NCBI GenBank assembly: GCA_937872895.1
Contig: CALMUP010000008.1
Coordinates: 68,976-132,975, forward strand
Direction of reading: 5' to 3'
Length of the DNA: 64,000 nt
Origin: an uncultured Verrucomicrobiota bacterium
Lineage (GTDB): Bacteria > Verrucomicrobiota > Kiritimatiellia > CAIVKH01
The notes below the pieces were generated by a model, which saw only the letters and a list, made by a program, of their open reading frames with translations, searched no databases and had not been told where the DNA came from. Below, piece by piece: positions 7,281-47,023 of this stretch. Within the stretch, counting starts at the first letter, position 1, and each line of letters opens with the position of its first letter. The position numbers were made by a program, and so were the translations under genes.

Positions 7281-8468
7281 CTACAGCACCGGCTGGGTAT
7301 CGCGGACGACGAGGATGCGGGTGTTCCTGTTCTGGATGTAGGGTGGCTTGAGGTGCAGGGTCCGGCCGGCCCCGCCGGGGCTATGGACGAAGCGGACCTG
7401 GATCTCCTGCGGGTCGGTCGGGCAGGGCACGCGGGCGACCTGGAGCGAGCGGGGCAGCGTTTCCCAGCGGCGCACGTCGGGTTGTTCGAGCAGCCCGATC
7501 ATGATGATCCGGTACAGCGCGCCGACGAGTTCGTTCTGCTTGTCGAGTTGGTAGGCGGTCGCTTCCTTCAGGGCGATCCGGCTAACGGTCTTGGCCATGT
7601 CGCGGATCGCGTCCTTCTGCTTGGTGGTGAACGCGAGGTCGGCGGTGTCGGTCAGGGCATAACTGCGTCCGGCGGTCTGGCCATCGATGACGATCTCGGC
7701 GAAGCCGGCAGGCATGATCGGACGCCGTTGATTGTGGAGCTCCTGGCCGGTCGGGGAGCGGCCGATCAGGGCAAACACCACGAGTTCGTGGCCTGTGTTT
7801 GCGCCGGGTGTCGGGGAGGCGGGGGCATTGGTGCCGGGGGTGATCAGGCCGGTGCGCTCATCGATCTGAAGGGCGGGGAGCAGTTTGCCGGCCTCGCGGA
7901 ACTGCAATGCGGCATTGGACCAGTCGCCGATCATCGACAGGCAGAAGCCGGCCATGTAGCGGGAATAGGCGTCGTCGGGATAGTCCTTTTTCGCTTCCGC
8001 CGATAGCGACTGGATGATGCGGCGTGCTTCTACCGCGGCATTCTCCCAGTTCGACTGCAGCAGGTGATTCTTCGCGGTGAACGTGTGGAGCAGGGTGCGT
8101 TCGAACGGGACAGCATGGAAATTCTGGACATTGTCGTTGATGACCATGGATGCCGTGTCCTTGGTCACACTGATTGCGGTCATCTCCTCCAGCGTCTCAT
8201 AGGCATCGAGAAAATCCTTCGTCGAGTCGTCGTAGTGTTCGGCGGCCTGGCGGATCATGCCGCGCTCCATCATGAACAGAACGCGGTCGCGTTCGGGAAA
8301 ATCGGCCTTCTCCAACGTTTCGGCCGCCTTCCGGTAGTCGCCGCTGTGGTACTCGCGCCGCGCCTGGTTGAGGGACGAGGACGCACAACCGGAGGCGACG
8401 GCGGCCAGCAGGGCCAGCATCACCAACCCGGATGCTCTGGTCGGGGCGTGGTGCATGGTGGTCAACAT
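7281..8468 (-). CDS. Hypothetical lipoprotein
   Basis: Signal peptide with lipobox LAAVASGC. 395 aa. It lies immediately upstream of, and on the same strand as, the LpoB-like gene. Confidence 0.5.
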   Translation of the reverse strand: MLTTMHHAPTRASGLVMLALLAAVASGCASSSLNQARREYHSGDYRKAAETLEKADFPERDRVLFMMERGMIRQAAEHYDDSTKDFLDAYETLEEMTAISVTKDTASMVINDNVQNFHAVPFERTLLHTFTAKNHLLQSNWENAAVEARRIIQSLSAEAKKDYPDDAYSRYMAGFCLSMIGDWSNAALQFREAGKLLPALQIDERTGLITPGTNAPASPTPGANTGHELVVFALIGRSPTGQELHNQRRPIMPAGFAEIVIDGQTAGRSYALTDTADLAFTTKQKDAIRDMAKTVSRIALKEATAYQLDKQNELVGALYRIIMIGLLEQPDVRRWETLPRSLQVARVPCPTDPQEIQVRFVHSPGGAGRTLHLKPPYIQNRNTRILVVRDTQPVL

Positions 8469-8520
8469 GGCCGCCCGGTCGTCGCATGGAACGGCGATCC
8501 GGGCGGGGTGTGCGTGCCGG

Positions 8521-9192
8521 TTACCAGCCGATCAGCGGCAAGGTGGCGGCGCGGGCGAATTCGCGTTCGGTGGTCCAGGCGAGCAAGCCGGTCTCGAGGT
8601 CGGTTACCTCGACAGTCAGCTTGTAGTACTTCTCCTTGGTCTTGGAGACGCGGACTTGGCGGGGGCTGCGCTGGCTCATCTCGATCATTGAGCCGGTGAT
8701 CATGTACTTCGCGCCGAGCTGCTGGCCGATGCGGACCTGCGTTTCGGGGGTCACGTTCGCGGCCTGGAAGCCCTGCTCGTTCATCAGGTCGGCACGGCGC
8801 GACTCGTTCACGAACTGGGCCTTGCCGGAGCGGAACACCTCGGTGCGGATCCGGTCGGTCAAGGCCTTGGTGTCCATGTACTCGCTGGTGCGGTTCTCGA
8901 TGCCGGGGATCATCATGATAGGCGGGGTGGCCTGGCTGGCCAGGAAGGTAGTGATCATCTCGTCGGCCACGCTCTGGGATATCTGGCGCATGTCCACGAA
9001 ATCGTAGGATTCCTTCATGTGGGTGGTGCGGTTCACATCCACCTCGGTGGTCGAGGCGCGGAAAGCGGCGCAACCGGAGCTGGTGAGCATGGCCAGCATG
9101 CCGCAGCACAGAACACTTGAACGGACGAACATTGCTTTCATTTTCAAACCTGCCTGTTTCTGGTGGGTGGTTTCAACCTGCCTGTTGGTCAA
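8521..9192 (-). CDS. LpoB-like lipoprotein (COG3417; penicillin-binding protein activator family)
   Basis: Lipobox LTSSGC. Segments NRTSEYMDTKALTDRIRTEVFRSGKAQFV, QLGAKYMITGSMIEM and YKLTVEVTDLETGLLAWT parallel the E. coli LpoB core (NRTNGSLNAAE…, VGAHYVLYSSASGN, LQMQLMLVQTGEIIW). The true start is probably the internal MKAMFVRS at about 9141. Confidence 0.6.
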   Translation of the reverse strand: MTNRQVETTHQKQAGLKMKAMFVRSSVLCCGMLAMLTSSGCAAFRASTTEVDVNRTTHMKESYDFVDMRQISQSVADEMITTFLASQATPPIMMIPGIENRTSEYMDTKALTDRIRTEVFRSGKAQFVNESRRADLMNEQGFQAANVTPETQVRIGQQLGAKYMITGSMIEMSQRSPRQVRVSKTKEKYYKLTVEVTDLETGLLAWTTEREFARAATLPLIGW

Positions 9193-22513: not shown

Positions 22514-25324
22514 ATGATTGCTACACGCACCGTAGGGATGTTTGCAGGTTCTGGTCGGCGGGGGTGTGTTCTGGCGATAACGGTGGCATGCCTGCTCCCG
22601 ATCGCCAGCCGTGCCCAGACGCTCGATGCGGACATGAATTTCGCCTCGGGGTTGATCGAGTGGGGTTTTCCTGACTTCGCGTTGAAACAGGCCGAAGCCG
22701 TCCTGCAGAAGAATCCCGGTGCGGCTGATCGCGTCAACCTGATCCGGGCCCAGATTCACATCGCGGCCCGCCGCTTTGCCGAGGCCGAGGCGATGCTGGC
22801 CGGTTTCGCTCCCGGCAATGCGAAGGCCGATGCGCTGCGTCTTGCCTTGGCCAATGCGTACAACGCCGCCGGAGACACCGACAAGGCACGGCAGATTTAT
22901 ACGGAATTCTTCAGCCGGTTCACCGAGAAGCCGACCGATCCCGATGTGATGCGGTTCTACCGTGACGCTGCCTACCGCTATGCCGCCATGCTCGAGCGGG
23001 CCGGCGATCTGGTTGGCGCGTTTGATGCCTACAACCGGGTGTTGCTGACCGACCCGGAAAAGGACGTCGCCCGGCGCATCAAGACGGATCAATCGCAATT
23101 GTATCTCAAACTTGCCCGGGCCAACCATGAAGGCAAACGCGATGAATTTGCCCATAAGACCCGAACATTGGTCGAGGAAATTCAATGGGGCGGCGTGGAC
23201 CTGTGGTTCGGTCAGTCGATCATCACCCTGGCCAATGTCGAGTTGATCTACAACGACGAGGAGAAAGCACAGGCCATCATCCGTGACTACAAGGACATTC
23301 TCGATCAGATCGATGTGCTGCTGGAAGAGAACCAGATGTCCAAGGCGCTTAGTCCAAAGGCCGGAGCACGCTTTCTATCCGGAGAGATTTCCCAACGAGC
23401 CGCCGAGCGGGCCGCTGCCGCGAACGATACGGACGGTGCGGTGCGCGCCTATGGTGCCGCACTGACCGAATTCTACAATGTATTCGTCGGGTACGGCGAC
23501 AGCGACGTCGGTCCGGAGGCGGGAGTGCGTGCCCAGACGATCAAGGACATCCTGCAAAACACCTACGGCAAACGGGTGAACATCGACCTTGGAGCACGGG
23601 CCAACGAAGCCGCGATTACGGCGTACCGACTGGCTGAAACCCTGTTCCGCGAGAAGAAGTTCGCCGAGGCGGCTGACGCATTCCTCCGCGCCGCCAACCA
23701 GTTCCCTGAACTGGACACGACCGCCAAGGCGCTGGGCACGTTGATGCTCGCCTATGCTGAATTGGACGACGTGCTGATGGTACGTACAATCGCTTCGTAC
23801 GTGGCCGATCGGTTCTCCAGCAAACCCGACGGTGCCAACGGCCTCCTTGCCGCCGGCAAGTTTTATGTCGATAAGAACCGGCCCGACTTGTTCACCGAAT
23901 TGTACGAGACCTACCTGCGCGCCTATCCCTCACACGATCGCGCCGGTACGATCCTGTTCTTCCTCGCCACCCAGCGCAAGAAGGCCGGGGACGAGGCGGG
24001 TGCAGCGGCCTATTTCCGCCGGATCATCGATAACTACCCGAAGGACCAGTATTACCCGCGCGCCTTGACGCAGGTGGCCTGGAGTTTCTACCAGGCCGGT
24101 GACTTCGAAAGTGCAGTGAATTATTTCCGCAAGATGGTGGCGGAAACCCAACCAGGTCCGGACCGTGCCAATGCACAGTTCAACCTGGCCGATTCCCTGG
24201 TACGGCTTGGTCGATTTGCCGATGCCATCACGGAGCTGGAAACGCTGATCAAGTGGTTGGCCCCGCCCAGCAACCCGTACGGATCCTCGCCGTCCGATAT
24301 CGAGAAGAACCGCCAGACCCTCGAACGCGCCACCTTCCAACGCGCCCAAAGCCTGGCGCGGATCACCGAGCCGGCCGACCAGATCCCCGAGTTCCGCGAC
24401 CGGGCCATTCGCGGGTTCGACCAGTTCGTCCGGACGTTTGGCCAGTCCGACCTGGCATCGCGGGCGTTGAATGCCAAGGGAACGGTTCTGCTCGAACTCA
24501 AGCGCTTTGACGAAGCAACCCAGGCGTTTGATGAGCTCGCGGCCAAGTACCCCGACTCCACCGAGGGCCGCAACGCCTTGTTCTCCCTCGCACGGGCGGC
24601 CATGGAGATCAAGCAGTTCGAACAGGGGGTCGCGGCGTTCCGCAAGATGATGGGCATGCCGGATCAGTACGCCGCCGACGAATATGTCCGCCTTGGTCAA
24701 ATGATGGGTGATGCCGGCTATGCCAAGGAAGCCATCGAGGCCTTCAACCAGGCCCAGGGGAAAATCGCCCGCCTTCCCGAGGCCGAACAAGCCAATGCCC
24801 GCCCGCTGCTTGAGCGTTCGCTCTTCGGGATCGCGCAGGCCTATTACAAAGCGGGGCAATTTCCGGAGGCCATCCAGGCCGTGAGCGACCTGATGGCCCG
24901 GTATCCGCAATCGGGTCTGTTCTATGAAGCGAAATTCCTCCAGGGTGAAGCCTTGCGTGACAGCGGGCGCCTGCCCGATGCCGTGATCGCCTTGAGCGAT
25001 GTGTTCCGCTTTGCCTCCGACCCCGCCTTGATCAATCGAGCCAACCGGACCCTGGCCGATATCCAGACCCGGAACGGGGATCTGGTCGATGCCTTGGCGA
25101 CCTGGCAACGCATGGCTTTGCTCAGTGATCGCAGCAAACCCGAGAATCTGCCGATGATCGAAGAGGCGCTGTTCCGCAGCATTGAACTGGCGACCCAGTT
25201 GGAGCGGCACAAGGAAGTGATCGAAAGCGCCGATGACTATCTCGCCTTGTTCCCGCAGGGTCCGAACATCGTTACGGTGCGCCGCCTGCGTGGTGAGTCC
25301 GTCTTGAAATCCGCTGGTCCATAG
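22514..25324 (+). CDS. Large secreted tetratricopeptide-repeat (TPR) protein
   Basis: 936 aa with a signal peptide and TPR-like helical repeats throughout. It lies immediately upstream of the TPR/ExbB/ExbD/ExbD cluster. Confidence 0.7.
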   Translation: MIATRTVGMFAGSGRRGCVLAITVACLLPIASRAQTLDADMNFASGLIEWGFPDFALKQAEAVLQKNPGAADRVNLIRAQIHIAARRFAEAEAMLAGFAPGNAKADALRLALANAYNAAGDTDKARQIYTEFFSRFTEKPTDPDVMRFYRDAAYRYAAMLERAGDLVGAFDAYNRVLLTDPEKDVARRIKTDQSQLYLKLARANHEGKRDEFAHKTRTLVEEIQWGGVDLWFGQSIITLANVELIYNDEEKAQAIIRDYKDILDQIDVLLEENQMSKALSPKAGARFLSGEISQRAAERAAAANDTDGAVRAYGAALTEFYNVFVGYGDSDVGPEAGVRAQTIKDILQNTYGKRVNIDLGARANEAAITAYRLAETLFREKKFAEAADAFLRAANQFPELDTTAKALGTLMLAYAELDDVLMVRTIASYVADRFSSKPDGANGLLAAGKFYVDKNRPDLFTELYETYLRAYPSHDRAGTILFFLATQRKKAGDEAGAAAYFRRIIDNYPKDQYYPRALTQVAWSFYQAGDFESAVNYFRKMVAETQPGPDRANAQFNLADSLVRLGRFADAITELETLIKWLAPPSNPYGSSPSDIEKNRQTLERATFQRAQSLARITEPADQIPEFRDRAIRGFDQFVRTFGQSDLASRALNAKGTVLLELKRFDEATQAFDELAAKYPDSTEGRNALFSLARAAMEIKQFEQGVAAFRKMMGMPDQYAADEYVRLGQMMGDAGYAKEAIEAFNQAQGKIARLPEAEQANARPLLERSLFGIAQAYYKAGQFPEAIQAVSDLMARYPQSGLFYEAKFLQGEALRDSGRLPDAVIALSDVFRFASDPALINRANRTLADIQTRNGDLVDALATWQRMALLSDRSKPENLPMIEEALFRSIELATQLERHKEVIESADDYLALFPQGPNIVTVRRLRGESVLKSAGP

Positions 25325-25347
25325 TGAAACGAAGCGAGGGGAAACCC

Positions 25348-26124
25348 ATGAAAACCAAACCATATCTTTTCGCCGTGGTCGCCATCGTCGCCGGTTGGTC
25401 CGCCGATGCCGCCGTGGTCATCCTGCCCAACGGCAACCGTATTGAAGGCACCGAGATCAGGGCGAACCGCAACGGGGATGTCGTCCTTACCACCGCTGCT
25501 GGTCAACGTACCTTCGCCCGCGGCCAGTACACCCAGGCCATTGCCGATAAACCGGCTTCGTTCGACCAGGCGCGTGCCTTGGCCGGGCAGGGGAGGCATG
25601 ATGAGGCGATCACCATGCTGGAAACGATCGCAACCGAGTTCCGGTTTCTCGACTGGGACAACAAGGCGCTGATTGCCATCGCCCAGATCCAATCCGGCCG
25701 CGGCAACCACAAGCAGGCGGTTGAGGTCTATGAACGGTTGTTCCGTCAGGCACCGGAGTTGCGCCAGGATGCCGTCGCGCAATGGGCTTACCGCGATGCG
25801 TTGCTCGCCGCGGAGGAGTTCGACAAGCTGGTGCCGCAGTTGGATGATGCGATCAGCAAGGGAAGCCGCACCGATGCCGCCCGGGCCCAGGTCATGCGGG
25901 GTGATGTGCGGATGCGCCAGTCGCAGGTGGAGGCCGCGGTCATGGATTATCTCCGCTCCGCCATCCTGTTCGAGACCGAGGCGACCGTGCAGCCGGAAGC
26001 CCTGTTCAAGGCCGGACAGGGACTGGAAAAACTCCGTGATCCCCGTTCAAAAGAGATGTATCGTCGATTGGTAGCAAAGTATCCAACGTCCACCTTCGCC
26101 CAGGAAGCTCGGGGCAAGCTGTAA
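25348..26124 (+). CDS. Secreted TPR-like protein
   Basis: Signal peptide MKTKPYLFAVVAIVAGWSADA with TPR-like repeats. RBS gaggggaaa lies before the ATG at 25348. Confidence 0.6.
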   Translation: MKTKPYLFAVVAIVAGWSADAAVVILPNGNRIEGTEIRANRNGDVVLTTAAGQRTFARGQYTQAIADKPASFDQARALAGQGRHDEAITMLETIATEFRFLDWDNKALIAIAQIQSGRGNHKQAVEVYERLFRQAPELRQDAVAQWAYRDALLAAEEFDKLVPQLDDAISKGSRTDAARAQVMRGDVRMRQSQVEAAVMDYLRSAILFETEATVQPEALFKAGQGLEKLRDPRSKEMYRRLVAKYPTSTFAQEARGKL

Positions 26125-26132
26125 ACCAACGT

Positions 26133-26969
26133 ATGAAGCGAACCGTCATGAGGAGTGCTGGTATGTCCAATAAAATGCGCGTGTTGTTGTGTCTGATGGT
26201 GTCCATCGGCCTGTTGGGATTCACCTCGGCGGTCCTCGCCCAGGAGGCCGCACCGGCGGCCGGGGCCGGACTTGAGCTTGACGCCGATGCGGCGGCCGCA
26301 GCGGCCAACGAGGCGAAACAGGACCAGATGAGTTTCTACCGCATTGTCATGAGCGGTGGCTTCATGGGCGTGGTCCTCTGGCTGTCGCTGGGTGCCTGCT
26401 CGGTGGCCGGATTTGCCCTGATCGTCGATTCGTTCATCACCATCCGCGAGAAGAAGATCGTTCCCGACGCCTTTGTCACCAAGGTGCGCGAGTCGATGGA
26501 GCAGGGGGATGTCATGAAGGCGATGAAACACTGCGAGGAGGAGCCGGGCCCCTTGTCCAGCATCCTCACCGCCGGCTTCAGCAACGTGCAGGAAGGTTTC
26601 GAGGCGATTCAGGAGGCGGTCGGTATCGCCGCTGACCTGGAAAGTGAAAAACTGCTTCAGCGCGTCACCTACCTGAACGTGGTGGCCAACCTGGCGCCGA
26701 TGCTCGGGCTGCTCGGCACGGTGCAAGGCATGATCTTCGCCTTCGCCACCCTCGGTACCCAGTCTGCCGGTGCCGCCCAGCAGGCCATGCTCGCCGTCAA
26801 CATCGCCCAGGCGCTCTACACCACGGCGGGTGGCCTGGTGGCCGCCGTCCCGGCACTTGCCTTCTTCTACTACTTCCGCAACCGCGCCACCAAGATCACG
26901 CTGGGCATGGAGGCGTTGACCCTGGATTTGATCAAGGTGCTTCGCAACGTGGATGTCGTTTCCGAGTAA
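26133..26969 (+). CDS. MotA/TolQ/ExbB proton-channel family protein
   Basis: C-terminal core …ANLAPMLGLLGTVQGMIFAF…AQALYTTAGGLVAAVPALAFFYYF… with an N-terminal signal/anchor extension. Confidence 0.85.
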   Translation: MKRTVMRSAGMSNKMRVLLCLMVSIGLLGFTSAVLAQEAAPAAGAGLELDADAAAAAANEAKQDQMSFYRIVMSGGFMGVVLWLSLGACSVAGFALIVDSFITIREKKIVPDAFVTKVRESMEQGDVMKAMKHCEEEPGPLSSILTAGFSNVQEGFEAIQEAVGIAADLESEKLLQRVTYLNVVANLAPMLGLLGTVQGMIFAFATLGTQSAGAAQQAMLAVNIAQALYTTAGGLVAAVPALAFFYYFRNRATKITLGMEALTLDLIKVLRNVDVVSE

Positions 26970-26992
26970 TCGAGCCCCGGACAGGTGAACGG

Positions 26993-27406
26993 ATGAAAAA
27001 GCCGAGAGAAGAAGGGGGCGTCAATATGACGCCGATGATCGATGTGGTCTTCCAGTTGATCATCTTCTTCGTGTGCACCGCCGTCCTGGAGCAGCAGTCG
27101 ATCGATGAGAGCATCCGGTTGAGCATGTCGCCCCACGGACCCGCGGTCGAGAAGAAGGACCCCCGCGAGGTCGTGGTGGAGGTGGATGAGCGCGGTCGGA
27201 TATCCATCGCCCGCAACCACATGAACGAGGCGTTCCTGCGCAACCTGCTGCGGAACATCGTGGTGAACCATGGTCAGACCACACCGGTGATCATCCGCGC
27301 TGCCGGCGGGGCCAAGCACGAGGATGTGCGCAAGGTGATGGATGCCTGCGCCTATGCCGGCTTGTGGAAGGTTTCGTTTGCCGCCACCAAGGAAGTGGCC
27401 AAGTAG
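26993..27406 (+). CDS. ExbD/TolR biopolymer transport protein
   Basis: NMTPMIDVVFQLIIFF, a single TM helix and a periplasmic domain. 137 aa. Confidence 0.85.
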   Translation: MKKPREEGGVNMTPMIDVVFQLIIFFVCTAVLEQQSIDESIRLSMSPHGPAVEKKDPREVVVEVDERGRISIARNHMNEAFLRNLLRNIVVNHGQTTPVIIRAAGGAKHEDVRKVMDACAYAGLWKVSFAATKEVAK

Positions 27407-27421
27407 AAAGGCGCATGCACC

Positions 27422-27841
27422 ATGGCAGGTAAACGCAGAAGGTCCCGAGGTTCGTCGTCGGAGTCAGGCGAGGTCAACATGACCGCCATGATCGATGTGG
27501 TGTTTCAATTGCTGGTGTATTTCATTGTCACCATCCAGCCGGTTGATGTCATTGCCCACCTCGATGTATTTCGCCCGTCGCCGGAAAAGAAGCAGGAGAA
27601 GCTCGAGAAGCCGCCGAAAATGATCAACATCCAGATCTATCCGGACGGGTTTACCATCAATGAGCGCTCGGTCGGTTTACGTGAGCTGGATACGCTGGTG
27701 GGCCGTCTGGCCGCGATTGATACGCGCCAGACCATCATGATCATGGCCACCGCATTGTCCAAGCATGAAGACCTGATCCGGGTACTCGACCTGTGTGCCA
27801 AGCATGGCCTGCAGAACCTCTCCGTGATCAGCACCAATTAA
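27422..27841 (+). CDS. ExbD/TolR biopolymer transport protein (second paralogue)
   Basis: NMTAMIDVVFQLLVYFIV…, 139 aa. Confidence 0.8.
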   Translation: MAGKRRRSRGSSSESGEVNMTAMIDVVFQLLVYFIVTIQPVDVIAHLDVFRPSPEKKQEKLEKPPKMINIQIYPDGFTINERSVGLRELDTLVGRLAAIDTRQTIMIMATALSKHEDLIRVLDLCAKHGLQNLSVISTN

Positions 27842-27867
27842 CGGATGGAGCGAATAGGAAGCCCGCC

Positions 27868-29370
27868 ATGAACGAAAGCGCCTCGACGCCCACGCCCAGC
27901 ACCGAATCGATCAAGAAGAAGCACCTGCGCCGCCGGATCCTCGAGCATATGCTCGGCCCGGTCGGTTCGATCATTTTCCATATCATTATCGTGATTGCTG
28001 CGCTGAAATTTCTCGGTATGGTCGGCGAACAGAAGGATGCCGCCATCCAGGTCCAGATCATGGAACCGGACGCGATTGATCTCGAGGAATTCGAAAAGGA
28101 ACTGGAGCAGATGGATGAGCTGACCGAGATGACCGACCTGGTCAATCCCGATCAGAACTTCGACATGGAAACCCCTCCGGATGTATCCACCGATGTCGCC
28201 CCCTCCGAAGATATCAGCATGGACTTGGCCGATCTGAATGTCATCAGCGATGCCCAGAGCCCGCTGGTGATGAAGGGTCTGTACGAAGGGCGTTCGGCTG
28301 CCGGCCGCTCCAAGATGCTCGGTGGCGCCGGCCGCTGGGCGCGCGAGGTCGAGGGCTCGGTCAACAAGGCCCTCGAATGGTTGAAGAACAACCAGGCCGA
28401 AGACGGATCATGGGGCCCCGGCGACCGGGAAGCCATGACCGGTTTGGCCGTCCTGACCTTCCTGGCCAATGGGGAAACCCCGTCGTCCGCGCAATACGGA
28501 GCCACCGTTGAAAAAGGCATCAAGTACCTCGTCAGCCTCCAGGAGAAGTTCGGTGAAGGCCGGTTTGCCAACTGGACACCCGGCGGAGAAGGCGGCATGC
28601 ATCAGGCCTATGCCCATGGTATTGCCACCTACGCCCTGTCCGAAGCCTATGGCCTTACGCGTATTCCAAGCCTTAAACCTGTTATGGAAAACGCCGTGGC
28701 CCTGATCGTCAACGGCCAGCAACCCGGTGGTTCCTGGGATTATGGCTTCCGCAAAACGGCCCGACGCGATGCCTCCGTGGCGGGGTGGCAATTGCAGGCC
28801 TTGAAGGCCGCCATCATGGCGGGGGCCAGTACTCCGGGAATCAAGGAAGCCCTTGATCGAGGTGTCGAAGAATTGATCAAGAGCCAACACCCGGAAACCG
28901 GCATGTTCCCGTACTCATCGCCTGACCGCGGCAAGATGAGCATCACCGGTGTTTCCGTGTTGTGTCTGCAGATTTCCGGGAAGGGCCGCGACAGCGCAAC
29001 CCGTCGCGGACTGCAGGCGCTGAAACAAGCGGACATCGACTGGCAAAAGCCCATGGATTGGCCCATGTACTCCTGGTATTACATCACCCAGGCAAAGTTC
29101 CATGCCGGCGGGGGAGACTGGGATCAGTGGAACATGAAATTCGCCCGGGAGATCATCCGGAACCAGAACGATGACGGAAGCTGGACTTCGGCTGGTCAGA
29201 ACATCGAGGGCGATGGCCATGGCAAGGAAGTGAACCATGGCCCGGTATATGCCACGACCCTGGCCGCCCTGACGCTTCAGGTCTATTACCGCTTCCTGCC
29301 GACCTACAAACCGGTCGAAGTCGAGGAAGACAAGGGGCCGTCCAAGGACGTGGTCATCGAGATCATCTGA
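27868..29370 (+). CDS. TonB-like membrane anchor fused to squalene-cyclase/prenyltransferase-like (alpha/alpha-toroid, QW-repeat) periplasmic domain
   Basis: Basic cytoplasmic N-terminus (KKKHLRRRILEH), one TM helix, an acidic Pro-containing linker, then at least four QW-type repeats (LEWLKNNQAEDGSWG; LIVNGQQPGGSWDYG; LIKSQHPETGMFPY; IIRNQNDDGSWTS). It occupies the position normally held by tonB after exbB-exbD-exbD. Confidence 0.6.
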   Translation: MNESASTPTPSTESIKKKHLRRRILEHMLGPVGSIIFHIIIVIAALKFLGMVGEQKDAAIQVQIMEPDAIDLEEFEKELEQMDELTEMTDLVNPDQNFDMETPPDVSTDVAPSEDISMDLADLNVISDAQSPLVMKGLYEGRSAAGRSKMLGGAGRWAREVEGSVNKALEWLKNNQAEDGSWGPGDREAMTGLAVLTFLANGETPSSAQYGATVEKGIKYLVSLQEKFGEGRFANWTPGGEGGMHQAYAHGIATYALSEAYGLTRIPSLKPVMENAVALIVNGQQPGGSWDYGFRKTARRDASVAGWQLQALKAAIMAGASTPGIKEALDRGVEELIKSQHPETGMFPYSSPDRGKMSITGVSVLCLQISGKGRDSATRRGLQALKQADIDWQKPMDWPMYSWYYITQAKFHAGGGDWDQWNMKFAREIIRNQNDDGSWTSAGQNIEGDGHGKEVNHGPVYATTLAALTLQVYYRFLPTYKPVEVEEDKGPSKDVVIEII

Positions 29371-29428
29371 TCCCGTCCCGCTTCGGCCGCAGTTGTGCTT
29401 TCCGGGCCGCGCGGCTACACTGCCGCCC

Positions 29429-31249
29429 ATGTCCAGCCACCCGGTCATCCAGATCCTGCCCGACCCGATCATCAACAAGATCGCGGCGGGCGAAGTGGTT
29501 GACCGACCCGCCTCGGTGGTGAAGGAATTGATGGAAAACGCCATCGACGCCGGTGCCCGCAACATCCATGTCTCGGTGATCGATGGCGGATTGAAGCTGA
29601 TCTCCATTGCCGATGACGGCCATGGCATGGACCGTGACAACGCGTTGTTGTCGATTGAACGCCATGCAACCAGCAAGATACGCCATGTGGACGACATCGA
29701 GAACGTGGCCACGCTGGGTTTCCGCGGTGAAGCACTCGCCGCGATCGCCTCCGTATCGCGGTTCACCTTGACCACCCGCCGCGCCGAGGATCTCAGCGGT
29801 ACCGAGATCCGGATCAACGGGGGCCGTATCGAGGATGTCGGTGAAGCCGGTTGTCCGCCGGGAACCCGGTTCGATATCCGGCAACTGTTCTTCAACGTGC
29901 CCGCGCGGCGGAAGTTCCTCAAAGCCGCCGCCACCGAATTGAACCATATCCGCCAGGTGTTTCTCCTGTATGCGCTCGGTCGTCCTGATATCGGCTTGCG
30001 GCTGACGTCGGATGAACGTGATTTGTACCGGCTCGATGCGGATAGCCAGATCGAGGACCGGATCCGCCAGTTGTACGGCCCTGATCTGGTCCGCGACTTG
30101 TGCGCGGTCTCGTGGACCAACGGACCGTGGCGCATCCACGGCCTGGCCAGCCATCCCAGGTTGCACCGCGCCGACAAGGCGGAGCAGTACATCTACGTCA
30201 ATGGCCGCCCCGCGAGTGCGCCGGTTCTCGGCTACGCCATCAGTGAGAGTTATGCCGACAGGATCCCGCGTGGCCGGCATCCGATCCTCTTCCTGTTCAT
30301 CGAGGTGCCGCCGGGCGATGTCGATGTCAATGTCCACCCGACCAAGAAGGAGGTCCGCTTCCGCCGTGCCGGACCGCTGCGCGACGCCCTGATGGCTGCG
30401 TTGACTGCCGCGCTTGCCGCCCGCATCACGGAAACGGCAGCCGTGGCGGGAACGCCGACCCGTGACCGGGCCACTCCGGATGGATCCGCCCGACCGGGCG
30501 CCGAGCCGTTCATGCGTGTCCCGGATCTGCCGGTACTGCCCGCATTTGATTACCCTGTTCCCGAGCGTACCATGGTTCCGCTGTCACCCAGCGGGAGCGC
30601 TCCTTCCGCCTCGCCGTCCGGGGCCTTCGCCGCCTCCGCCACCGCCGCACAACCAAACCATCGGGCACCTTGGCACTGGTGCCGGATCCTTGGTCAGATC
30701 GCCGATTTCTTTGTCGTGCTGGAAACGGACGAGGGCATGATCCTGATGGATCCACAGGCGGCCCATGAGCGGGTCCTGTTCGAGCGGTTCATGCGGTCAT
30801 TGAAGGGGCGCACCCTCGATACCCAGGGATTGCTCACCCCGGAAACGGTCACCTTGCCACCGCTCAAGGCCGCATTGGTCCGGAAGCATCTGGCCGTCTT
30901 GCAGGAAATCGGGGTGGGGGTATCGGAATTCGGCGGGGACACCTTCCTGGTTGAGGCATTGCCCTCCGTATTGGGCGAATTGTCCGCCGCCGCGCTGTTG
31001 GCGGATGTTACCGAGGAACTCGAGCTGGTCGGGAAACAAGCCTCCGGCCTCGCCGCGATTCGCGACACCGTCGTGCAGATGGCGGTACGCGCCGCCGTGC
31101 GCAGCACCACCCAGTTGTCGCGCGAGGAGTTGGAGCGGCTGATCAGTGATCTGGCCATGACCGCCATGCCGTATACGAGTCCGCGGGGGAGGCCCACCCT
31201 CGTGTTCACCAGCATCCAGGAACTTAACCGGAAATTCGGCCGCGCCTAG
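29429..31249 (+). CDS. mutL: DNA mismatch repair protein MutL
   Basis: N-terminal GHKL ATPase (IINKIAAGEVVDRPASVVKELMENAIDAGA…) and a C-terminal dimerisation domain. Start at MSSHP (29429). Confidence 0.9.
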   Translation: MSSHPVIQILPDPIINKIAAGEVVDRPASVVKELMENAIDAGARNIHVSVIDGGLKLISIADDGHGMDRDNALLSIERHATSKIRHVDDIENVATLGFRGEALAAIASVSRFTLTTRRAEDLSGTEIRINGGRIEDVGEAGCPPGTRFDIRQLFFNVPARRKFLKAAATELNHIRQVFLLYALGRPDIGLRLTSDERDLYRLDADSQIEDRIRQLYGPDLVRDLCAVSWTNGPWRIHGLASHPRLHRADKAEQYIYVNGRPASAPVLGYAISESYADRIPRGRHPILFLFIEVPPGDVDVNVHPTKKEVRFRRAGPLRDALMAALTAALAARITETAAVAGTPTRDRATPDGSARPGAEPFMRVPDLPVLPAFDYPVPERTMVPLSPSGSAPSASPSGAFAASATAAQPNHRAPWHWCRILGQIADFFVVLETDEGMILMDPQAAHERVLFERFMRSLKGRTLDTQGLLTPETVTLPPLKAALVRKHLAVLQEIGVGVSEFGGDTFLVEALPSVLGELSAAALLADVTEELELVGKQASGLAAIRDTVVQMAVRAAVRSTTQLSREELERLISDLAMTAMPYTSPRGRPTLVFTSIQELNRKFGRA

Positions 31250-33081: not shown

Positions 33082-33258
33082 GGAAGCGACCGGTTTGACA
33101 AGCCCCGTATCCCTCGGTCGGGCCGGCCGGGATGCGGCATCAAAGCAAAAGCTTGTCTATCTGACTGATTTCCCTTAGGAACAACGGCACAAGACCGGTT
33201 CGGAACGTCCCGTAGCCGGACGTTGCCGGACCGGTTGTGTTATGTAGGGAGCTGTATC

Positions 33259-35400
33259 ATGTCGAACCTGTTGAATGCCGACCAGATCAAGGAAGCCATC
33301 GAGCGGGACGATTGCCCGTGGCCCACGGTGGAATCGAGCCTCAAGGCCCTGTACCGCAGCGGACCGAAGGCACAAGCCGATAGCCTGTCCGATCTGGCCG
33401 CCACCGCTCTCGAAGCCTCGGGAAATTTCGACGGCTGGCTGGGTGTCATGGAGGTCCGCACCAGCGCCTCCGGGGAGTCCGGCTCCGCCTGGACCGCCCG
33501 CGTGTTGAAAGTGATCGGAAGCGAATGGGAACAGAAGGCCTTGGTTGAACAGGCCGGGTTCGATTCCGGCATCAGCGCCGGCGAAGCCATGCGCCGCCTC
33601 CGTCTGCTTCGCGGCCTCAAGGAAGGTGCCGTTTGCTTCGACAAGACCTGGGGTACCGGAGTGGTTGGCAAGACCGACTACTTCTACAAGCGGGTGGACA
33701 TTGATTTCCGCAAAAAACGCGGCCATCAACTTGCCTTGTCCTACGCCGCGGAAAAACTCCTGCTCCTCGACGAGCACCACATCCTGTACTGGCGTCACCA
33801 GAAACCGGCCGAACTGGTCGATCTGGTCAAGTCCAAGCCCGGTGAAGCCTTCAAGCTTGCGCTGCGTTCCTTCGGCGCCATGTCTGCCGTGCAGCTCCAG
33901 GAGAAGATGGTGCCGGATGTCCTCGACGAGAAGCAGTGGAAGTCCCTGTGGGATGCCGCCCGCAAGGAGCTCAAGGCGGACAAGACCGTGCAGATCCCTT
34001 CCAACAAGAAGGATCCGATCCGCCTGATCGACGAAGCCCGCGCGAACGACGTCAGCAATGACCTCAACGGCCTTGCCGCCGAACGCAACCTGGAAACGCT
34101 CGCCCTGCGGTTTGAAGAACTCGCCGAGGAAATCGGTCAGGGTGGCCTGACCGACCAGCAGCGCGGAATCCTGCAGGATCGCCTGGCCTTCGTGGTAAAA
34201 GGCGCCTGGCCGCGGCAATTGACCCTGTTGATCCGCACGAAAATGGCTGCCGTATCCCTCGGCATAGATGACGAGAGTAAACCCGAACTCGCCGCGATCG
34301 AGAAGTTCCTCGACGAAGAGATCTTCATGGAAACGCTGCGCAAGTTGCCGGTGAAGCACTCCGCCAGGTTCCTCCGTTACCTCTCCGCGTACAGCAAGGA
34401 CCGGATCGATTCCATGCTCGTCGCGTTGCTGAAGAAGATGGACATCGGATCCATGGCGGAAGTGATCAACTACCTGTTCGAACAGGGGCAGGAACGCCAG
34501 GTCGCGGAAATCTTCCGATCGGCGGTCGATACCCGCGAGCCCGGTATCGAAATCCTGAGTTGGCTCTCCCGCAACATGGAGAAAGTGGCCGCCTGGAACC
34601 TCGGTCCGATGAACCAGATGCTGCACTTCATGGTCGATGAAATCGAGAAGGACTACAACGGCGACCAGCTCAAGGCCCAGAACCAGCTCAAGGAACGCTT
34701 CAACAAGTCCGAATGGATGAAGTCGGCCATGGTCCAGCTCGACGAGGCACAGCGCGAAGTGATCACCATGCGCGTAAAAAACTCGTCCGGTTGGTCGATG
34801 CTCGACCGGCAGTCCCAGCTCGCCACCATGGTCAAGCTGTTCCCCGAGCTCGAGGCCCTGATGGCCAGCAGCAGCAAGCAGGAGCAGTCGGCCCCGAAGG
34901 GTCCGCTGACCTCGATTCGCACCTACGAGGAGCGCAAGGAGCAGCTGCAGCGCATCGTGAACGTGGAGATTCCCCGGGTGGCCAAGGAAATCGCCCTGGC
35001 CCGCGAATACGGCGACCTGCGCGAGAATTTCGAGTACAAGGCCGCCAAGGACGCCCAGGCCCTGCTGTTCCGCCGCCGCGACGAAATCGCCGCGATGCTG
35101 GCCAAGGTCACGCCGACCGACTTCAAGGACCTCCCTACCGACAAGGCCGGACCCGCCACCTCGGTGACCCTGACCTATGGCGATGGCAAGGTGGAAACAT
35201 TCCACCTGCTGGGCGAATGGGATACCGACCCGACCCTGAGCATCATCTCCAGCAATTCCCGCATGGCCCAGGTGCTGAGCGGCCATGTCGCCGGCGATTC
35301 GCTGATGGTCCCGACAGAAAATGGCGAGGCGACCTGCACGGTGACCGCAATCAGCGCGTTGCCCGACAAGATCCGCCTGTGGATTGAGCGGAAACTGTAA
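33259..35400 (+). CDS. Large (713 aa) protein with C-terminal complete GreA/GreB transcript-cleavage-factor module
   Basis: The C-terminal roughly 150 aa contain a coiled-coil with the acidic tip GDLRENFEYKAAKD (equivalent to the GreA DxxE tip) followed by an FKBP-like domain. The N-terminal roughly 560 aa are novel/helical. RBS gggag lies before the ATG at 33259. Confidence 0.65.
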   Translation: MSNLLNADQIKEAIERDDCPWPTVESSLKALYRSGPKAQADSLSDLAATALEASGNFDGWLGVMEVRTSASGESGSAWTARVLKVIGSEWEQKALVEQAGFDSGISAGEAMRRLRLLRGLKEGAVCFDKTWGTGVVGKTDYFYKRVDIDFRKKRGHQLALSYAAEKLLLLDEHHILYWRHQKPAELVDLVKSKPGEAFKLALRSFGAMSAVQLQEKMVPDVLDEKQWKSLWDAARKELKADKTVQIPSNKKDPIRLIDEARANDVSNDLNGLAAERNLETLALRFEELAEEIGQGGLTDQQRGILQDRLAFVVKGAWPRQLTLLIRTKMAAVSLGIDDESKPELAAIEKFLDEEIFMETLRKLPVKHSARFLRYLSAYSKDRIDSMLVALLKKMDIGSMAEVINYLFEQGQERQVAEIFRSAVDTREPGIEILSWLSRNMEKVAAWNLGPMNQMLHFMVDEIEKDYNGDQLKAQNQLKERFNKSEWMKSAMVQLDEAQREVITMRVKNSSGWSMLDRQSQLATMVKLFPELEALMASSSKQEQSAPKGPLTSIRTYEERKEQLQRIVNVEIPRVAKEIALAREYGDLRENFEYKAAKDAQALLFRRRDEIAAMLAKVTPTDFKDLPTDKAGPATSVTLTYGDGKVETFHLLGEWDTDPTLSIISSNSRMAQVLSGHVAGDSLMVPTENGEATCTVTAISALPDKIRLWIERKL

Positions 35401-42922: not shown

Positions 42923-43192
42923 CTAGGTCCGGTTGAGCTGGTCCACGATGCCGACGATTACCGAACGGACCGGTGCGGTGGGGTCACCCAGCACCTGGCG
43001 GGCTCCGGTTCCCTCATCGAGAACAAGGACCGGTTCGCCGATGCCGGCCCCGACGGAATCCACCGCGATCAGGTAATCCCCGCCCGGCTTTCCCTCGGGA
43101 TTGTGCTTCTCCACCATCAGGAGTTTTTTCCCGTCGTAAAACGGGTGGTTGATCGTTGAGTAGATGTTGCCGATGACGACGCCGGTGATCAT
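42923..43192 (-). CDS. BMC vertex protein (BMC-P; EutN/CcmL/PduN family)
   Basis: MITGVVIGNIYSTINHP…GKKLLMV……GDYLIAVDSVGAGIGEPVLV…. 89 aa. Confidence 0.85.
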   Translation of the reverse strand: MITGVVIGNIYSTINHPFYDGKKLLMVEKHNPEGKPGGDYLIAVDSVGAGIGEPVLVLDEGTGARQVLGDPTAPVRSVIVGIVDQLNRT

Positions 43193-43473
43193 GGTGTGCC
43201 TGCCTCGTTGCGGGTGATGCCGTCCACGATGCCGATGATCGCGTGATCGACCGGGACGAACGTCGTGTCCAAGGCCATGGCCGCCTCGCGGCCTCCTTCG
43301 TAATAAACGGTCTCGCCTGCGCCGGCCATCCGTGTGGCATCGGCCGCGACCAGCGCCTTGCCCTTCGGCTGGCCGTTCTTGTCGAGCGGCTGGACCAGTA
43401 GCATCGGCACGCCGCCGAGGCCTTCGTAGATGTCGCAGGGGACAACGGTTCCGATGACTTTGCCGAGCATCAT
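43189..43473 (-). CDS. BMC vertex protein (BMC-P), second paralogue
   Basis: MMLGKVIGTVVPCDIYEGLGGVPMLLVQPL…ALVAADATRMAGAGETVYY…. Strong RBS aggagagagg before the internal ATG; the 154-aa track ORF was rejected. Confidence 0.8.
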   Translation of the reverse strand: MMLGKVIGTVVPCDIYEGLGGVPMLLVQPLDKNGQPKGKALVAADATRMAGAGETVYYEGGREAAMALDTTFVPVDHAIIGIVDGITRNEAGTP

Positions 43474-43474
43474 A

Positions 43475-44086
43475 TCAAGTCCTCTCTCCTTCGAGTTCGA
43501 GGGCGGTGGCTTCGTGGAAACGGGTCGAGCCGTTGATCTGGCGACCGAGGGCTTCGTGGGGTGCGGTGAGGATCCGGTGGGTGAAGACCACCCCGGCGTG
43601 TTCGAGGAAGGCTGCGGCGAGGTCCACTGCGGCCTCGATATCATGCAGGTCACCCTCGTAGATGCTCAAGCCCTTGCCCGCGAGCCCGTCATCGGCCAGG
43701 CGCAACTCGATCAGCGATACCGGGGTGCCTTTGAGTGCGGCCTCGGCGGCCCGGACATTCGCGGAAACCGAGGAGGTCTCGATGATCGCCCAGGCTCCGT
43801 CACGGGTCGCCGCACGGCGACCGAACATCGCCGCAAATACGTCGGGATGCACATCGGGGAGAAACACCTTGTCGATCAGCGCCTGCCCGGCCCAGAACTG
43901 GCCTTCGGCATAGGCCTCCTCGACGGCGGCGGTGGAGCCGCCGATAACGGTCAGGTAACGCCCGCGGGTGATCGTTCCGTTCTTCAGGAAGGCGATCGGC
44001 GCTTTCTTGAGCATGGCATCGGTGGCCTGGATTCCCGAGGGAATGTCCAGGAACTCCAGGATGGCCACCGCGGGGAAGGGCTTCAT
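43475..44086 (-). CDS. Tandem-domain BMC shell protein (BMC-T)
   Basis: Two BMC (PF00936-like) domains: AVAILEFLDIPSGIQATDAMLKKAPIAF… and AWAIIETSSVSANVRAAEAALKGTPVSLIELRL…. The start codon overlaps the AldDH stop (TGATG). Confidence 0.7.
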   Translation of the reverse strand: MKPFPAVAILEFLDIPSGIQATDAMLKKAPIAFLKNGTITRGRYLTVIGGSTAAVEEAYAEGQFWAGQALIDKVFLPDVHPDVFAAMFGRRAATRDGAWAIIETSSVSANVRAAEAALKGTPVSLIELRLADDGLAGKGLSIYEGDLHDIEAAVDLAAAFLEHAGVVFTHRILTAPHEALGRQINGSTRFHEATALELEGERT

Positions 44087-45537
44087 CAGGTGATCCGGAA
44101 GTGGTCGACCAGCACGCAGCGGCGCCACCGCGAGAAGCTGCGCGGTCCGGTGAGGCCTTCGCCGGTCGGGCTGGCGATGGTGAACGAGCAGTAGCCTTCG
44201 CCACCGAGGCCGAGTCCCGCCTGGGAGCGGCCATTCTTGACGAAGATGCTGCAGTTGCATTCCTTTGCCATGCGGTGCAGTTTGTCGATGTTGCGCGAGT
44301 GCATGATCGCGGTGTGGCGGTTGCCGCCCTCGGTCTTGAGGGCGAGGTCGATCGCGTAGTCGGCATTCGGTACGCGGCAGACCGGCAGGATCGGCATCAT
44401 CTGTTCGGTCCAGAGCAGCGGATGGTTCTCGTCGACTTCGACGATGCCGAGGCGGATCGAGCTCGGGACATTGATGCCGATCTTCGCGAGGATCACGTCG
44501 GCGTTCTTGCCGATCAAGTCGCGGTTGATGTGGGCCTCCTTGCGGGGTCCGTGCATTTCGGTGAAGATGACTTTCTCCAGCGCGGCGAGCTTGTCGGGAC
44601 CGATCAGCACCGCATTGTTCTGGGTCATGGCCTGGACCAGCCGGTCGGCCACGCTCGACACCACCAGCACCTGTTTCTCGTCGGCGCAGATAATGTTGTT
44701 GTCGGTCGAGGCGCCGAGCACGATGTCGCGCCCGGCCTTGTCGATGTCGGCGGTCTCGTCGACGACCACCGGCGGGTTGCCAGGGCCGGCGCAGATCGCG
44801 CGCTTGCCGCTGGTCATCGCCGCCTTCACCACACCGCCACCGCCGGTCACCACGACCAGGCGGATATCCGGATGCTTCATCGTGGCGTTGGCGCTCTCCA
44901 CGGTCGGGCTGGCCACGCAGGTGATGGTGTTCGCCGGGCCGCCGGAATCGACGATGACCTTGTTGATCAGCGCGACGGTCTGCATGGAGCAGTTCTTCGC
45001 GGTCGGATGGACGTTGAAGACCACCGTGTTGCCGGCGGCGATCATGCCGATGGTGTTGCAGATGATCGTCGAGGTCGGGTTGGTGCAGGGGGTGATCGCG
45101 CCGATCACGCCAAACGGGGCGGGCTCGAGCAGGCAGAGGCCGTGGTCGCCGGTGATGGCCTGCGGTTCGAGGTGCTCCATGCCCGGGGTCTTTTCCGTCA
45201 CCAGGATGTTCTTGGTGATCTTGTCCTCAAAGCGGCCGAGGCCGGTCTCGGTATGGGCCGCCTTGGCCAGCGGAGCGGCGTGCTCGAGCATCGTCTTGCG
45301 GATGTTGGCGATGATCGTGGCGCGGGTCTTGAGGGGCAGGGCGACGAATACCGGTTGCGCGGCCTTGGCGGCCTTCACCGCTTCATCCACGGTGGCGTAG
45401 ATGCCGAGGGCCTGTTCCAGGGGCGGTGCCCCCGAGGCGCTGGTCGCGGCGGGGCTGCCCGGTTCCCGGTTCAAGTCCGCAACGATGCGCTGGGCGATCG
45501 CATCGATTTCCTGGTCGGTCAATCTGGCCATAATCAC
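44086..45537 (-). CDS. CoA-acylating aldehyde dehydrogenase (EutE/PduP family) with N-terminal encapsulation-peptide-like helix
   Basis: 483 aa with an ALDH fold and a catalytic Cys region. The N-terminus ARLTDQEIDAIAQRIVADL (amphipathic) is followed by a Pro/Ser/Ala linker. Confidence 0.85.
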   Translation of the reverse strand: MIMARLTDQEIDAIAQRIVADLNREPGSPAATSASGAPPLEQALGIYATVDEAVKAAKAAQPVFVALPLKTRATIIANIRKTMLEHAAPLAKAAHTETGLGRFEDKITKNILVTEKTPGMEHLEPQAITGDHGLCLLEPAPFGVIGAITPCTNPTSTIICNTIGMIAAGNTVVFNVHPTAKNCSMQTVALINKVIVDSGGPANTITCVASPTVESANATMKHPDIRLVVVTGGGGVVKAAMTSGKRAICAGPGNPPVVVDETADIDKAGRDIVLGASTDNNIICADEKQVLVVSSVADRLVQAMTQNNAVLIGPDKLAALEKVIFTEMHGPRKEAHINRDLIGKNADVILAKIGINVPSSIRLGIVEVDENHPLLWTEQMMPILPVCRVPNADYAIDLALKTEGGNRHTAIMHSRNIDKLHRMAKECNCSIFVKNGRSQAGLGLGGEGYCSFTIASPTGEGLTGPRSFSRWRRCVLVDHFRIT

Positions 45538-45638
45538 ACCTCGAACGACGGCGAAGGATCAACAACCGGGCATGCACCGGGCCATCAGCCCGTGGCACCC
45601 GTGCGTGCCATGCCCTGCGATGTTGCTCCTGTCCGCTA

Positions 45639-45926: not shown

Positions 45927-45963
45927 AGTGATCCCATCTCCCGCACGGGGCGGGATGGACTGG

Positions 45964-47000: not shown

Positions 47001-47023
47001 GGTGATACTCCTTCTTCCTTCTG

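Follow-up and report, generated by a model that had tools for sequence, protein, structure and literature searches.

Protein X, the 500-residue product of the last gene of a six-gene operon, is encoded on a 64,000-nucleotide stretch of contig CALMUP010000008.1 (GenBank assembly GCA_937872895.1, positions 68,976 to 132,975) from an uncultured Verrucomicrobiota bacterium of the class Kiritimatiellia; this whole stretch is referred to below as the window. X is probably the subunit that transduces force in a proton-driven envelope machine of the Tol/Ton type, with a non-catalytic, binding toroid as its head and a core copy that would do a Tol-like housekeeping job, a reading to which we assign a probability of about 0.6. 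Very few couplers are known to deliver energy to the outer membrane of diderm bacteria: besides TonB and TolA, these are a few proteins of gliding motility and the vWA-headed proteins described in 2025. The evidence presented here is computational throughout and consists of profile searches, motif counts, AlphaFold2 structure prediction, and synteny.

Six open reading frames (ORFs) lie on the plus strand within positions 22514-29370 (Table 1), in a window with a guanine-cytosine content of about 62%. Their coordinates were confirmed, as was the co-directional order tetratricopeptide repeat (TPR)-TPR-ExbB-ExbD-ExbD-X that had been proposed, with short gaps, in an initial annotation made from the letters of the sequence; the intergenic gaps measure 20, 8, 23, 15, and 26 bp. 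A database protein (P0001) recorded as 'terpene cyclase/mutase family protein [Kiritimatiellia bacterium]' matches X along its whole length with 100% identity, and the ATG at 27868 is therefore supported as the start codon of X.

The N-terminal part of X has the topology of TonB, as had been suggested beforehand: the first 29 residues are basic (6 K/R), the hydrophobic residues 30-52 correspond to a single transmembrane (TM) helix, and residues 53-143 form an acidic, proline-containing linker. Among 60 diverse members of the family (<55% identity), G30 and H38 of the helix are invariant, and P31 and S34 (93%) are at least 93% conserved. The Ser and His residues of the helix are separated by the same S-x3-H spacing as S16 and H20 in TonB and S18 and H22 in TolA. 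Counting from the Ser, the consensus has a Leu at +11 and no Ser occurs at +15, so that three of the four SHLS positions are matched. A profile of the X N-terminus was compared by hhalign with 11 aligned TolA/TonB N-termini taken from Williams-Jones et al. (2025, supplement; PMC12204202), giving a probability of 87% and a score of 29.6, with the Ser and His residues in register. When all columns were shuffled, the maximum score in 200 trials was 15.7. In a harder control, in which the 23 TM columns were shuffled, the mean was 13.4 (standard deviation 3.5) and the maximum 26.2, and none of the 200 trials reached 29.6.

Eight residues past the helix begins a segment with the pattern of a beta-strand, in which hydrophobic residues occupy positions 60, 62, and 64 in 92%, 100%, and 90% of the 60 sequences, respectively, and which continues with E66 and often P67. 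At the level of the motif, residues 60-67 resemble the D-box of TonB, defined experimentally as QPISVTMVTPAD, whose alternate side chains (Ile, Val, and Met) lie buried between a pair of ExbD periplasmic domains (Loll et al. 2024). In Lentisphaeria/Victivallales, a more distant subtype of the N-terminus, EEYRRRQMxEHLTGPxxSxxxH, is found. The linker, which has a median length of about 110 residues in the family, holds in X a predicted helix (residues 72-89) and a conserved SPLVMKGL..GRSAxGR motif.

Where TonB carries its C-terminal domain, X carries a helical toroid. The AlphaFold2 model, computed with a 38-sequence alignment, has a mean predicted local distance difference test score (pLDDT) of 78; a helix covers residues 12-50, confidence is low for residues 51-72 and 88-142, residues ~158-474 form a 12-helix barrel with pLDDT mostly >90, and the last 24 residues are disordered, with low pLDDT. 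The alpha/alpha-toroid postulated by the initial annotation is thus borne out by 12 confident helices, although its length had been overestimated, at about 380 residues instead of the ~333 measured (residues 144-476). A Foldseek search of the model against the PDB retrieved (alpha/alpha)6 proteins only, with E values of about 1e-5 and none standing out. They included single-domain squalene-hopene cyclases, drimenyl-diphosphate synthase, a GH76 mannanase, GH105, cellobiose 2-epimerase, and AprG. The QW-like pattern Q-x2-5-G-x-W/F, of which at least four copies had been noted, occurs at five sites (176, 225, 284/285, 340, and 433), each located after an odd-numbered helix. Composition shuffles of the domain contained 0.55 such sites on average, and the observed five were reached in 0 of 2000. 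No TonB C-terminal domain (PF03544/TIGR01352) or TolA domain was matched in X with Pfam or NCBIfam, its C-terminal 350 residues being an all-alpha toroid, and VWA gave no Pfam match either. X therefore has QW repeats and no TonB C-terminal domain, the two points on which the proposal of a toroid-headed protein had been staked in advance.

Sequence similarity of X to terpene cyclases is weak. Its only Pfam match, to PF13243 (SQHop_cyclase_C), is marginal (26.9 bits for a cutoff of 26.1), the match to TIGR01787 (E = 4e-8) is far under the cutoff, equivalog cyclase models score 27-32 bits for cutoffs of 323-431, and the single-domain cyclase structure 8pak_A is weakly matched in sequence (4e-4). 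X shares with class II terpene cyclases and the squalene-hopene beta domain (single-domain 8pak and 8paj) the (alpha/alpha)6 fold and QW-type repeats after each outer helix. By contrast, it consists of one domain instead of a beta-gamma didomain and is predicted to be periplasmic on a TonB-like anchor, and it is distinct from the 550-700-residue 'SHC-like' (squalene-hopene cyclase-like) clade described in the cyclase literature for the Planctomycetes-Verrucomicrobia-Chlamydiae (PVC) group. The D-x-D-D motif is absent anywhere in X. The CGEQ thioester motif is absent from X as well, weak PF07678 matches being seen only in some homologues. X contains one Cys (C366), no Cys is found among the residues at least 90% conserved in 210 diverse members, and zinc ligands are lacking. 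Most of the residues that are invariant in these 210 members (<60% identity) occupy aromatic or Gln/Gly positions of the repeats; R142, E259, D301, K313, and R475 are invariant as well. Readings of X as a cyclase, a prenyltransferase, a thioester protein, or a zinc enzyme were thus rejected for want of DxDD, CGEQ, and a conserved Cys or zinc site. Of the description 'terpene-cyclase-like' that had been given to X, the fold and the QW repeats hold; since the catalytic signatures of cyclases, prenyltransferases, and thioester proteins are missing, the term describes a fold only.

The toroid is followed by a short tail, for which the consensus in the family is an acidic spacer and then D-[VI]-x-[IV]-[ED]-[IV]-[ILF]-COOH. 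This tail is kept in the motor-linked subtypes a, b, and c and in the anti-sigma variants described below, and is absent from fusions with kinases and from PD40/multidomain fusions. It is reminiscent of the beta-augmentation peptides of Ton and Tol systems (the Ton box and the TolB N-terminal peptide), or else of a signal for PDZ proteins or tail-specific proteases.

The association of X with motor genes is conserved. A scan of one representative genome per GTDB species (185,579 species) yielded 495 loci with X relatives. The best 80 of the 495, which come from Kiritimatiellia, Verrucomicrobiota-labelled, and Lentisphaerae metagenome-assembled genomes and show 41-97% identity, were used for synteny. 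In 66 of these 80 loci, ExbD2 is immediately upstream of X, which, with the S-x3-H helix and the D-box-like strand, upholds the initial proposal that X, with its N-terminus of TonB topology, occupies the position of TonB. The full order TPR936-TPR259-ExbB-ExbD1-ExbD2, of which TPR936 is the first gene, was found in 57 loci, and 9 more are truncated by contig ends. In related loci, TPR259 is always located between TPR936 and ExbB, and ExbD1 and ExbD2 are distinct orthologous groups in a fixed order. Lentisphaeria share this layout, with a large TPR-like protein, a protein of ~248 residues, ExbB, ExbD, ExbD, and X. Two or three X genes stand in tandem in 14 of the 80 loci, and 11 loci carry 'orphan' copies, usually second copies in their genome. 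The core copy is 47-80% identical across the class and is set among housekeeping genes such as mutL. The family is large: an exhaustive hidden Markov model search retrieved 17,701 clusters at 50% identity with E<=1e-3, and 5,773 with E<=1e-30.

The motor had been identified as ExbB-ExbD in the initial annotation, and the matches to the Pfam families MotA_ExbB and ExbD agree with this at the family level (Table 1). However, the sequences of the motor and TPR genes appear to resemble Tol components (TolQ, TolR, and CpoB/YbgF) more than Exb ones. The TolQ/ExbB-like subunit, which carries a signal-peptide-like N-terminal extension, scores 94.7 bits with TIGR02796 (tolQ) versus 43.2 bits with TIGR02797 (exbB), and its nearest solved chains are TolQ (2.4e-12) versus ExbB (3.8e-7). 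TolR is the top match for both ExbD proteins, and ExbD1 also matches solved chains of ExbD and TolR. All these Tol-type matches of motor and TPR proteins are under the equivalog cutoffs, the sole exception being that of TPR936 with the YbgF/CpoB model (TIGR02795, tol_pal_ybgF; 134.7 bits over six stretches, cutoff 90.1), a pass probably due to the number of its repeats. TPR936 also matches many TPR families of Pfam. The top NCBIfam match of TPR259 is also tol_pal_ybgF, at 48 bits, under the cutoff of 90. TPR259 has the size of CpoB/YbgF and CpoB/YbgF-like C-terminal TPRs, preceded by a conserved mature N-terminus ('VILPNGNRIEGTxIRA..GDIxLTT..GQRTF'); a GTG at 25324 is a possible alternative start. 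Its AlphaFold2 model, obtained from the single sequence, has a pLDDT of 64 and was left out of the fold search. Both TPR proteins had been described as secreted, which fits their hydrophobic N-termini ending in AxA, signal peptides being judged here by eye and not by a predictor; inspection of TPR936 in the window and of its orthologues showed the same features and no lipobox.

These properties allow the X system to be compared with known envelope motors. Like TonB, X is encoded directly after exbD and has several paralogues per genome; its cytoplasmic N-terminus is short and basic, its only TM helix contains S-x3-H, and this helix is followed, ~8-15 residues on, by a candidate D-box-like strand and then by a long flexible periplasmic linker. 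It differs from TonB by the lack of PF03544, by a head made of a 333-residue all-helical toroid and a C-terminal strand tail, and by a linker that is acidic and only modestly proline-rich; moreover, its motor, which is closer to TolQ, contains two ExbD proteins that differ from each other, and no TonB-dependent transporter is linked to X in the window. With TolA, X shares a putatively TolQ/TolR-like motor, the S-x3-H helix, and a housekeeping context, and the layout cpoB-like TPR-tolQ-tolR-transducer mirrors that of cpoB-tolQ-tolR-tolA operons, an order reported for deep-branching phyla (Williams-Jones et al. 2025, supplement, PMC12204202). Unlike TolA, X lacks domain III and has paralogues, some of them in tandem, its operon encodes an extra 936-residue TPR protein and two TolR paralogues, and neither tolB nor pal is linked to it in the loci examined.

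The closest parallel is provided by the vWA-headed transducers of PVC bacteria, which consist of a TM helix with the His of SHLS, a motor box, a disordered linker, and a vWA head, and are encoded downstream of TPR-tolQ-tolR-tolR (Williams-Jones et al. 2025, Mol Biol Evol, PMC12204202). Both systems follow the same grammar (TPR, tolQ-like, two heterologous tolR-like genes, then one or more transducers), occur in the same phylum (Kiritimatiellota), include tandem duplicates, and have the same N-terminal logic of TM His, motor/stator box, and disordered linker. The X system differs by its (alpha/alpha)6 head, by other TM and linker sequences, and by its two TPR genes. As the motifs and the operon grammar agree and no toroid or prenyltransferase-like head is mentioned in that paper or its supplement (PMC12204202), the X family fits the concept of a non-TonB transducer with a different head. 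Searches of the literature for ExbD or TonB in combination with a prenyltransferase, a squalene cyclase, or a toroid yielded no relevant paper. Non-TonB heads were thus already published in 2025 in the form of vWA, and the toroid appears to be an undescribed head type.

From these comparisons, we infer that X is coupled to the motor and that its head binds rather than catalyzes. A TolQ/ExbB-like pentamer would enclose the two different ExbD/TolR proteins as a heterodimer, each with a proton-binding TM aspartate, and X would use its TM helix (Ser34 and His38) to dock on the pentamer rim. Residues 60-67 would be captured between the two ExbD periplasmic domains, in the manner of the TonB D-box, and the acidic linker, of ~90 residues, would span the periplasm. 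The toroid and the C-terminal strand tail would then grip a target at the cell wall or outer membrane, either a partner or a ligand, on which the motor would pull, with the two periplasmic TPR proteins possibly serving as adaptors. Additional paralogues may redeploy the X module for sugar-linked uptake and for signalling through extracytoplasmic function (ECF) sigma factors.

The paralogues and fusions bear on this last point. Three orphan copies (L037:7195-9404, L032:7251-9446, and L050:3835-6035) have an N-terminal extension ('ELIxKYLDD...') and lie just after an ECF sigma-70 gene (Sigma70_r2 + r4), which overlaps the X paralogue by 4 bp in L037. A zf-HC2 anti-sigma domain was found on one toroid relative (P0202). 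These anti-sigma forms retain the TonB-like GPxGSxxxH helix, and the presence of a putative motor-docking helix in anti-sigma paralogues suggests a motor-linked transmembrane signalling. Signalling by FecR is known to depend on the Ton motor. Like FecR-type anti-sigma factors, some X paralogues combine an anti-sigma domain at the N-terminus with a large domain in the periplasm and are encoded immediately downstream of an ECF sigma gene; in contrast to them, the paralogues keep the S-x3-H helix and carry a toroid in place of the FecR domain, and core X has no anti-sigma domain. Other orphans are linked to sugars: one is inside an operon with an ABC sugar transporter and GH5 (L002), one is beside a substrate-binding protein-permease pair (L013), one is beside GH2 (L087), and another paralogue (P0184) is near heparinase-like lyases. 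The toroid is also found at the C-terminus of Ser/Thr kinases (P0217 and P0247) and, in one or two copies, of PD40-propeller proteins of 1,400-2,000 residues (P0227, P0230, P0248, and P0258). Because it constitutes the periplasmic end of anti-sigma factors and kinases, the toroid is most simply viewed as a recognition module. As Rosetta-stone evidence for a link to TolB, the PD40-toroid fusions were judged weak, because their propellers match PorE/CHU_0125-type outer-membrane-integrity proteins far better than TolB. Near the orphan X of L013, a 521-residue protein with a MotA_ExbB domain is followed by two small proteins with ExbD-like N-termini unrecognised by Pfam (L013:1996-4715, minus strand), a cluster that may represent a further divergent motor.

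For the core copy, usually single and highly conserved, a housekeeping, Tol-like envelope job appears most likely. It is favored by this high conservation, by the housekeeping neighborhood, by the Tol-like parts, and by the lack of a recognisable TolA in these phyla. Tichowtungia aerotolerans (Kiritimatiellota) has no recognisable TolA or TonB (Williams-Jones et al. 2025). In the supplement of the same study (PMC12204202), Kiritimatiella glycovorans is listed with tolB-pal, located elsewhere in the genome, and with no annotatable TolA, and one Lentisphaerae genome has the entry 'tolQ-tolR-???-No TolA found'. Several observations nevertheless weigh against such a role or against motor coupling itself. 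Because the profile of the N-terminal module, searched against every PDB sequence, retrieved no TonB or TolA, only chance antiporter matches, the claim of N-terminal homology is one of motifs and of one profile-profile comparison over a short, mostly hydrophobic segment. N-terminal subtype c keeps the post-membrane strand and lacks the Ser/His pair; one of its members adjoins ExbD (L083), and another is solitary near polysaccharide lyases. No TonB C-terminal domain, TonB-dependent transporter, TolB, or Pal was found among the 46 likely ORFs of the window that were scanned, nor was any PD40, OmpA, or Pal protein found in the window, and no tolB, pal, TonB-dependent transporter gene, or other outer-membrane partner was seen directly downstream of X in 17 loci (ORF N-termini, read by eye). 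The several paralogues per genome and the sugar-operon neighborhoods look more Ton-like than Tol-like. Finally, the same phylum harbors a second, vWA-type TPR-tolQ-tolR-tolR cluster, and the X cluster therefore need not be the Tol equivalent.

The same motor coupling could instead have a Ton-like output, in which the toroid would bind a polysaccharide, or an outer-membrane channel loaded with glycan, and the motor would power the capture of large glycans and their import into the periplasm; these phyla degrade sulfated polysaccharides and largely lack SusC/D. This is a serious rival because of the usual chemistry of the fold, the paralogues in sugar operons, and the biology of polysaccharide degraders, although we consider it unlikely. 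Most bacterial (alpha/alpha)6 toroids are carbohydrate-active, and Foldseek places GH76, GH105, and epimerases beside the cyclases; homologues of X give weak Pfam matches to GH88, Pec_lyase, and TED, the orphans of L002, L013, and L087 and the P0184 paralogue lie in sugar contexts, and several paralogues per genome are found, as for TonB. K. glycovorans is reported to lack genes for TonB-dependent polysaccharide uptake. A further lead, and only a lead, comes from the MUL1 locus of Akkermansia muciniphila (Amuc_0543-0548), also a PVC bacterium. In this locus, needed for mucin uptake, genes for ExbB (Amuc_0548) and ExbD (Amuc_0546) accompany hypothetical genes including mul1A (Amuc_0544), itself required for that uptake; the gene order there appears to be motor first, the gene names are those of a transcriptome supplement, and the locus is only a possible homologue of the X cluster. 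Against glycan import, no gene for an outer-membrane channel is linked to X, and the strong conservation of the core copy (47-80%) among housekeeping genes fits one fixed ligand better than varied nutrients.

It would also be conceivable, if quite improbable, that X is a membrane-anchored periplasmic enzyme (an isoprenoid cyclase or transferase, a glycosidase, or a lyase) that neighbors the motor by chance and has no mechanical coupling to it. The database name, the score for PF13243 slightly above threshold, and the invariant charged residues E259, D301, K313, and R475, which could form an active site, speak for an enzyme, but X lacks DxDD, a second (gamma) domain, zinc ligands, and a thioester motif, and the same domain is a sensor module in anti-sigma factors and kinases. 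An enzyme next to the motor by chance would, moreover, leave the conserved TonB/TolA-type TM motif and the D-box-like strand unexplained, and the adjacency to ExbD2 holds in two phyla (66 of 80 loci). More improbable still is a core X that acts mainly as a transmembrane sensor or regulator, gating the motor or signalling the state of the envelope, instead of transducing force. In three of its close paralogues (L032, L037, and L050), which are true anti-sigma factors, an ECF sigma gene precedes or overlaps the start of the gene, and the zf-HC2 domain of P0202 and the fusions of the toroid to Ser/Thr kinases point the same way; yet core X has only ~29 cytoplasmic residues, with no anti-sigma or other output domain, and its operon contains no regulator gene. 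A role in defence, of the kind played by MotAB-like motors such as Zorya, was rejected, as none of the six proteins gave a meaningful PADLOC match.

If X is a force transducer with a binding head, an additional type of head would widen the range of tasks that Tol/Ton-type motors can perform. A bolder proposal, possible but on balance doubtful, is that toroid-headed transducers form a third, very abundant, PVC-specific class of proton-motor envelope effectors, being either the missing TolA equivalent of Kiritimatiellota and Lentisphaerota or a TonB-independent polysaccharide hauler. In the former case, the toroid and C-terminal strand would grip TolB/Pal or the cell wall in replacement of TolA domain III; in the latter, the device would seize polysaccharide directly and draw it into the periplasm. 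In both, the pull of the motor on the ligand-bound toroid of an anti-sigma paralogue would free the ECF sigma factor, a force-gated form of signalling. X would be a candidate for an open problem, namely how the outer membrane is stabilised and constricted in Kiritimatiellota and in some Lentisphaerota, which have TolB-Pal without an identifiable TolA. It also touches a second one, the import of glycans by polysaccharide specialists that lack Sus-like systems. The fusions to anti-sigma domains and kinases suggest that the toroid is a general periplasmic recognition module, and thousands of proteins carry a misleading name in the databases, 'terpene cyclase/mutase family protein'.

Table 1. Coordinates of the X operon, of the segments of X, and of a microcompartment cluster in the window.
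Feature	Position	Strand	Evidence or details
TPR936, secreted 936-residue multi-TPR protein, operon gene 1	22514..25324	+	TPR_16 4e-31; TIGR02795
TPR259, secreted 259-residue protein, N-terminal beta module then TPRs	25345..26124	+	TPR_6 8e-13
TolQ/ExbB-like proton-channel subunit, 278 residues	26133..26969	+	PF01618 (MotA_ExbB) 3e-25
ExbD/TolR paralogue 1, 137 residues	26993..27406	+	PF02472 2.6e-24; TM aspartate (MIDVVFQL)
ExbD/TolR paralogue 2, 139 residues	27422..27841	+	PF02472 4.3e-18; TM aspartate (MIDVVFQL)
X, 500 residues, probable toroid-headed TonB/TolA-like transducer (stop codon included)	27868..29370	+	motifs, AlphaFold2, synteny
X, TM helix, residues 30-52	27955..28023	+	GPVGSIIFHIIIVIAALKFLGMV; S34-x3-H38; conservation in 60 members
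X, acidic linker, residues 53-143	28024..28296	+	25 D/E and 6 Pro in 91 residues
X, D-box-like beta-strand, residues 60-67	28045..28068	+	IQVQIMEP; alternating hydrophobic pattern
X, (alpha/alpha)6 toroid, residues 144-476 (~333 residues)	28297..29295	+	AlphaFold2, Foldseek, five QW-like repeats
X, C-terminal tail, residues 477-500	29296..29367	+	LPTYKP, variable acidic spacer, then D-V-x-I-E-I-I-COOH (strand-like)
EutN/CcmL vertex proteins, microcompartment cluster	43189-43653, 45639-45926	-	
Aldehyde dehydrogenase, microcompartment cluster	44086-45537	-	
Bacterial microcompartment (BMC) shell proteins	45964-46263, 46374-47078	-	
RpiB-DeoC fusion, microcompartment cluster	47024-48298	-	

Downstream of the operon, mutL (29393-31249) begins 22 bp after X. 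A promoter/terminator scan, whose counts were equal to those in shuffles, showed no terminator-like site between the two genes. mutL is found directly 3' of the X gene or genes in 37 of the 80 related loci, an unexpectedly stable neighborhood for a DNA-repair gene. Other genes of the window are housekeeping and envelope genes, including those for LptD, an LpoB-like lipoprotein, a PpiD/SurA-like protein, Omp85, and MipA. On the minus strand, the LpoB-like lipoprotein gene (8521-9192; PF13036, 1.6e-25) is beside that of a 395-residue lipoprotein-like protein with a weak TPR match, the pair covering 7281-9192. Because CpoB/Tol systems act on PBP1B-LpoB in E. coli, this pair is of interest here.

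The remaining observations concern other parts of the window. The minus strand carries a bacterial microcompartment cluster at 43189-48298, probably for a sugar-degradation microcompartment of the PVC type. At 33223-35400, a 725-residue protein ends in a GreA/GreB domain (last 160 residues), preceded by a 560-residue N-terminal region without any Pfam match. Finally, a gene of the phage-integrase family (62964-64000) runs past the end of the window.

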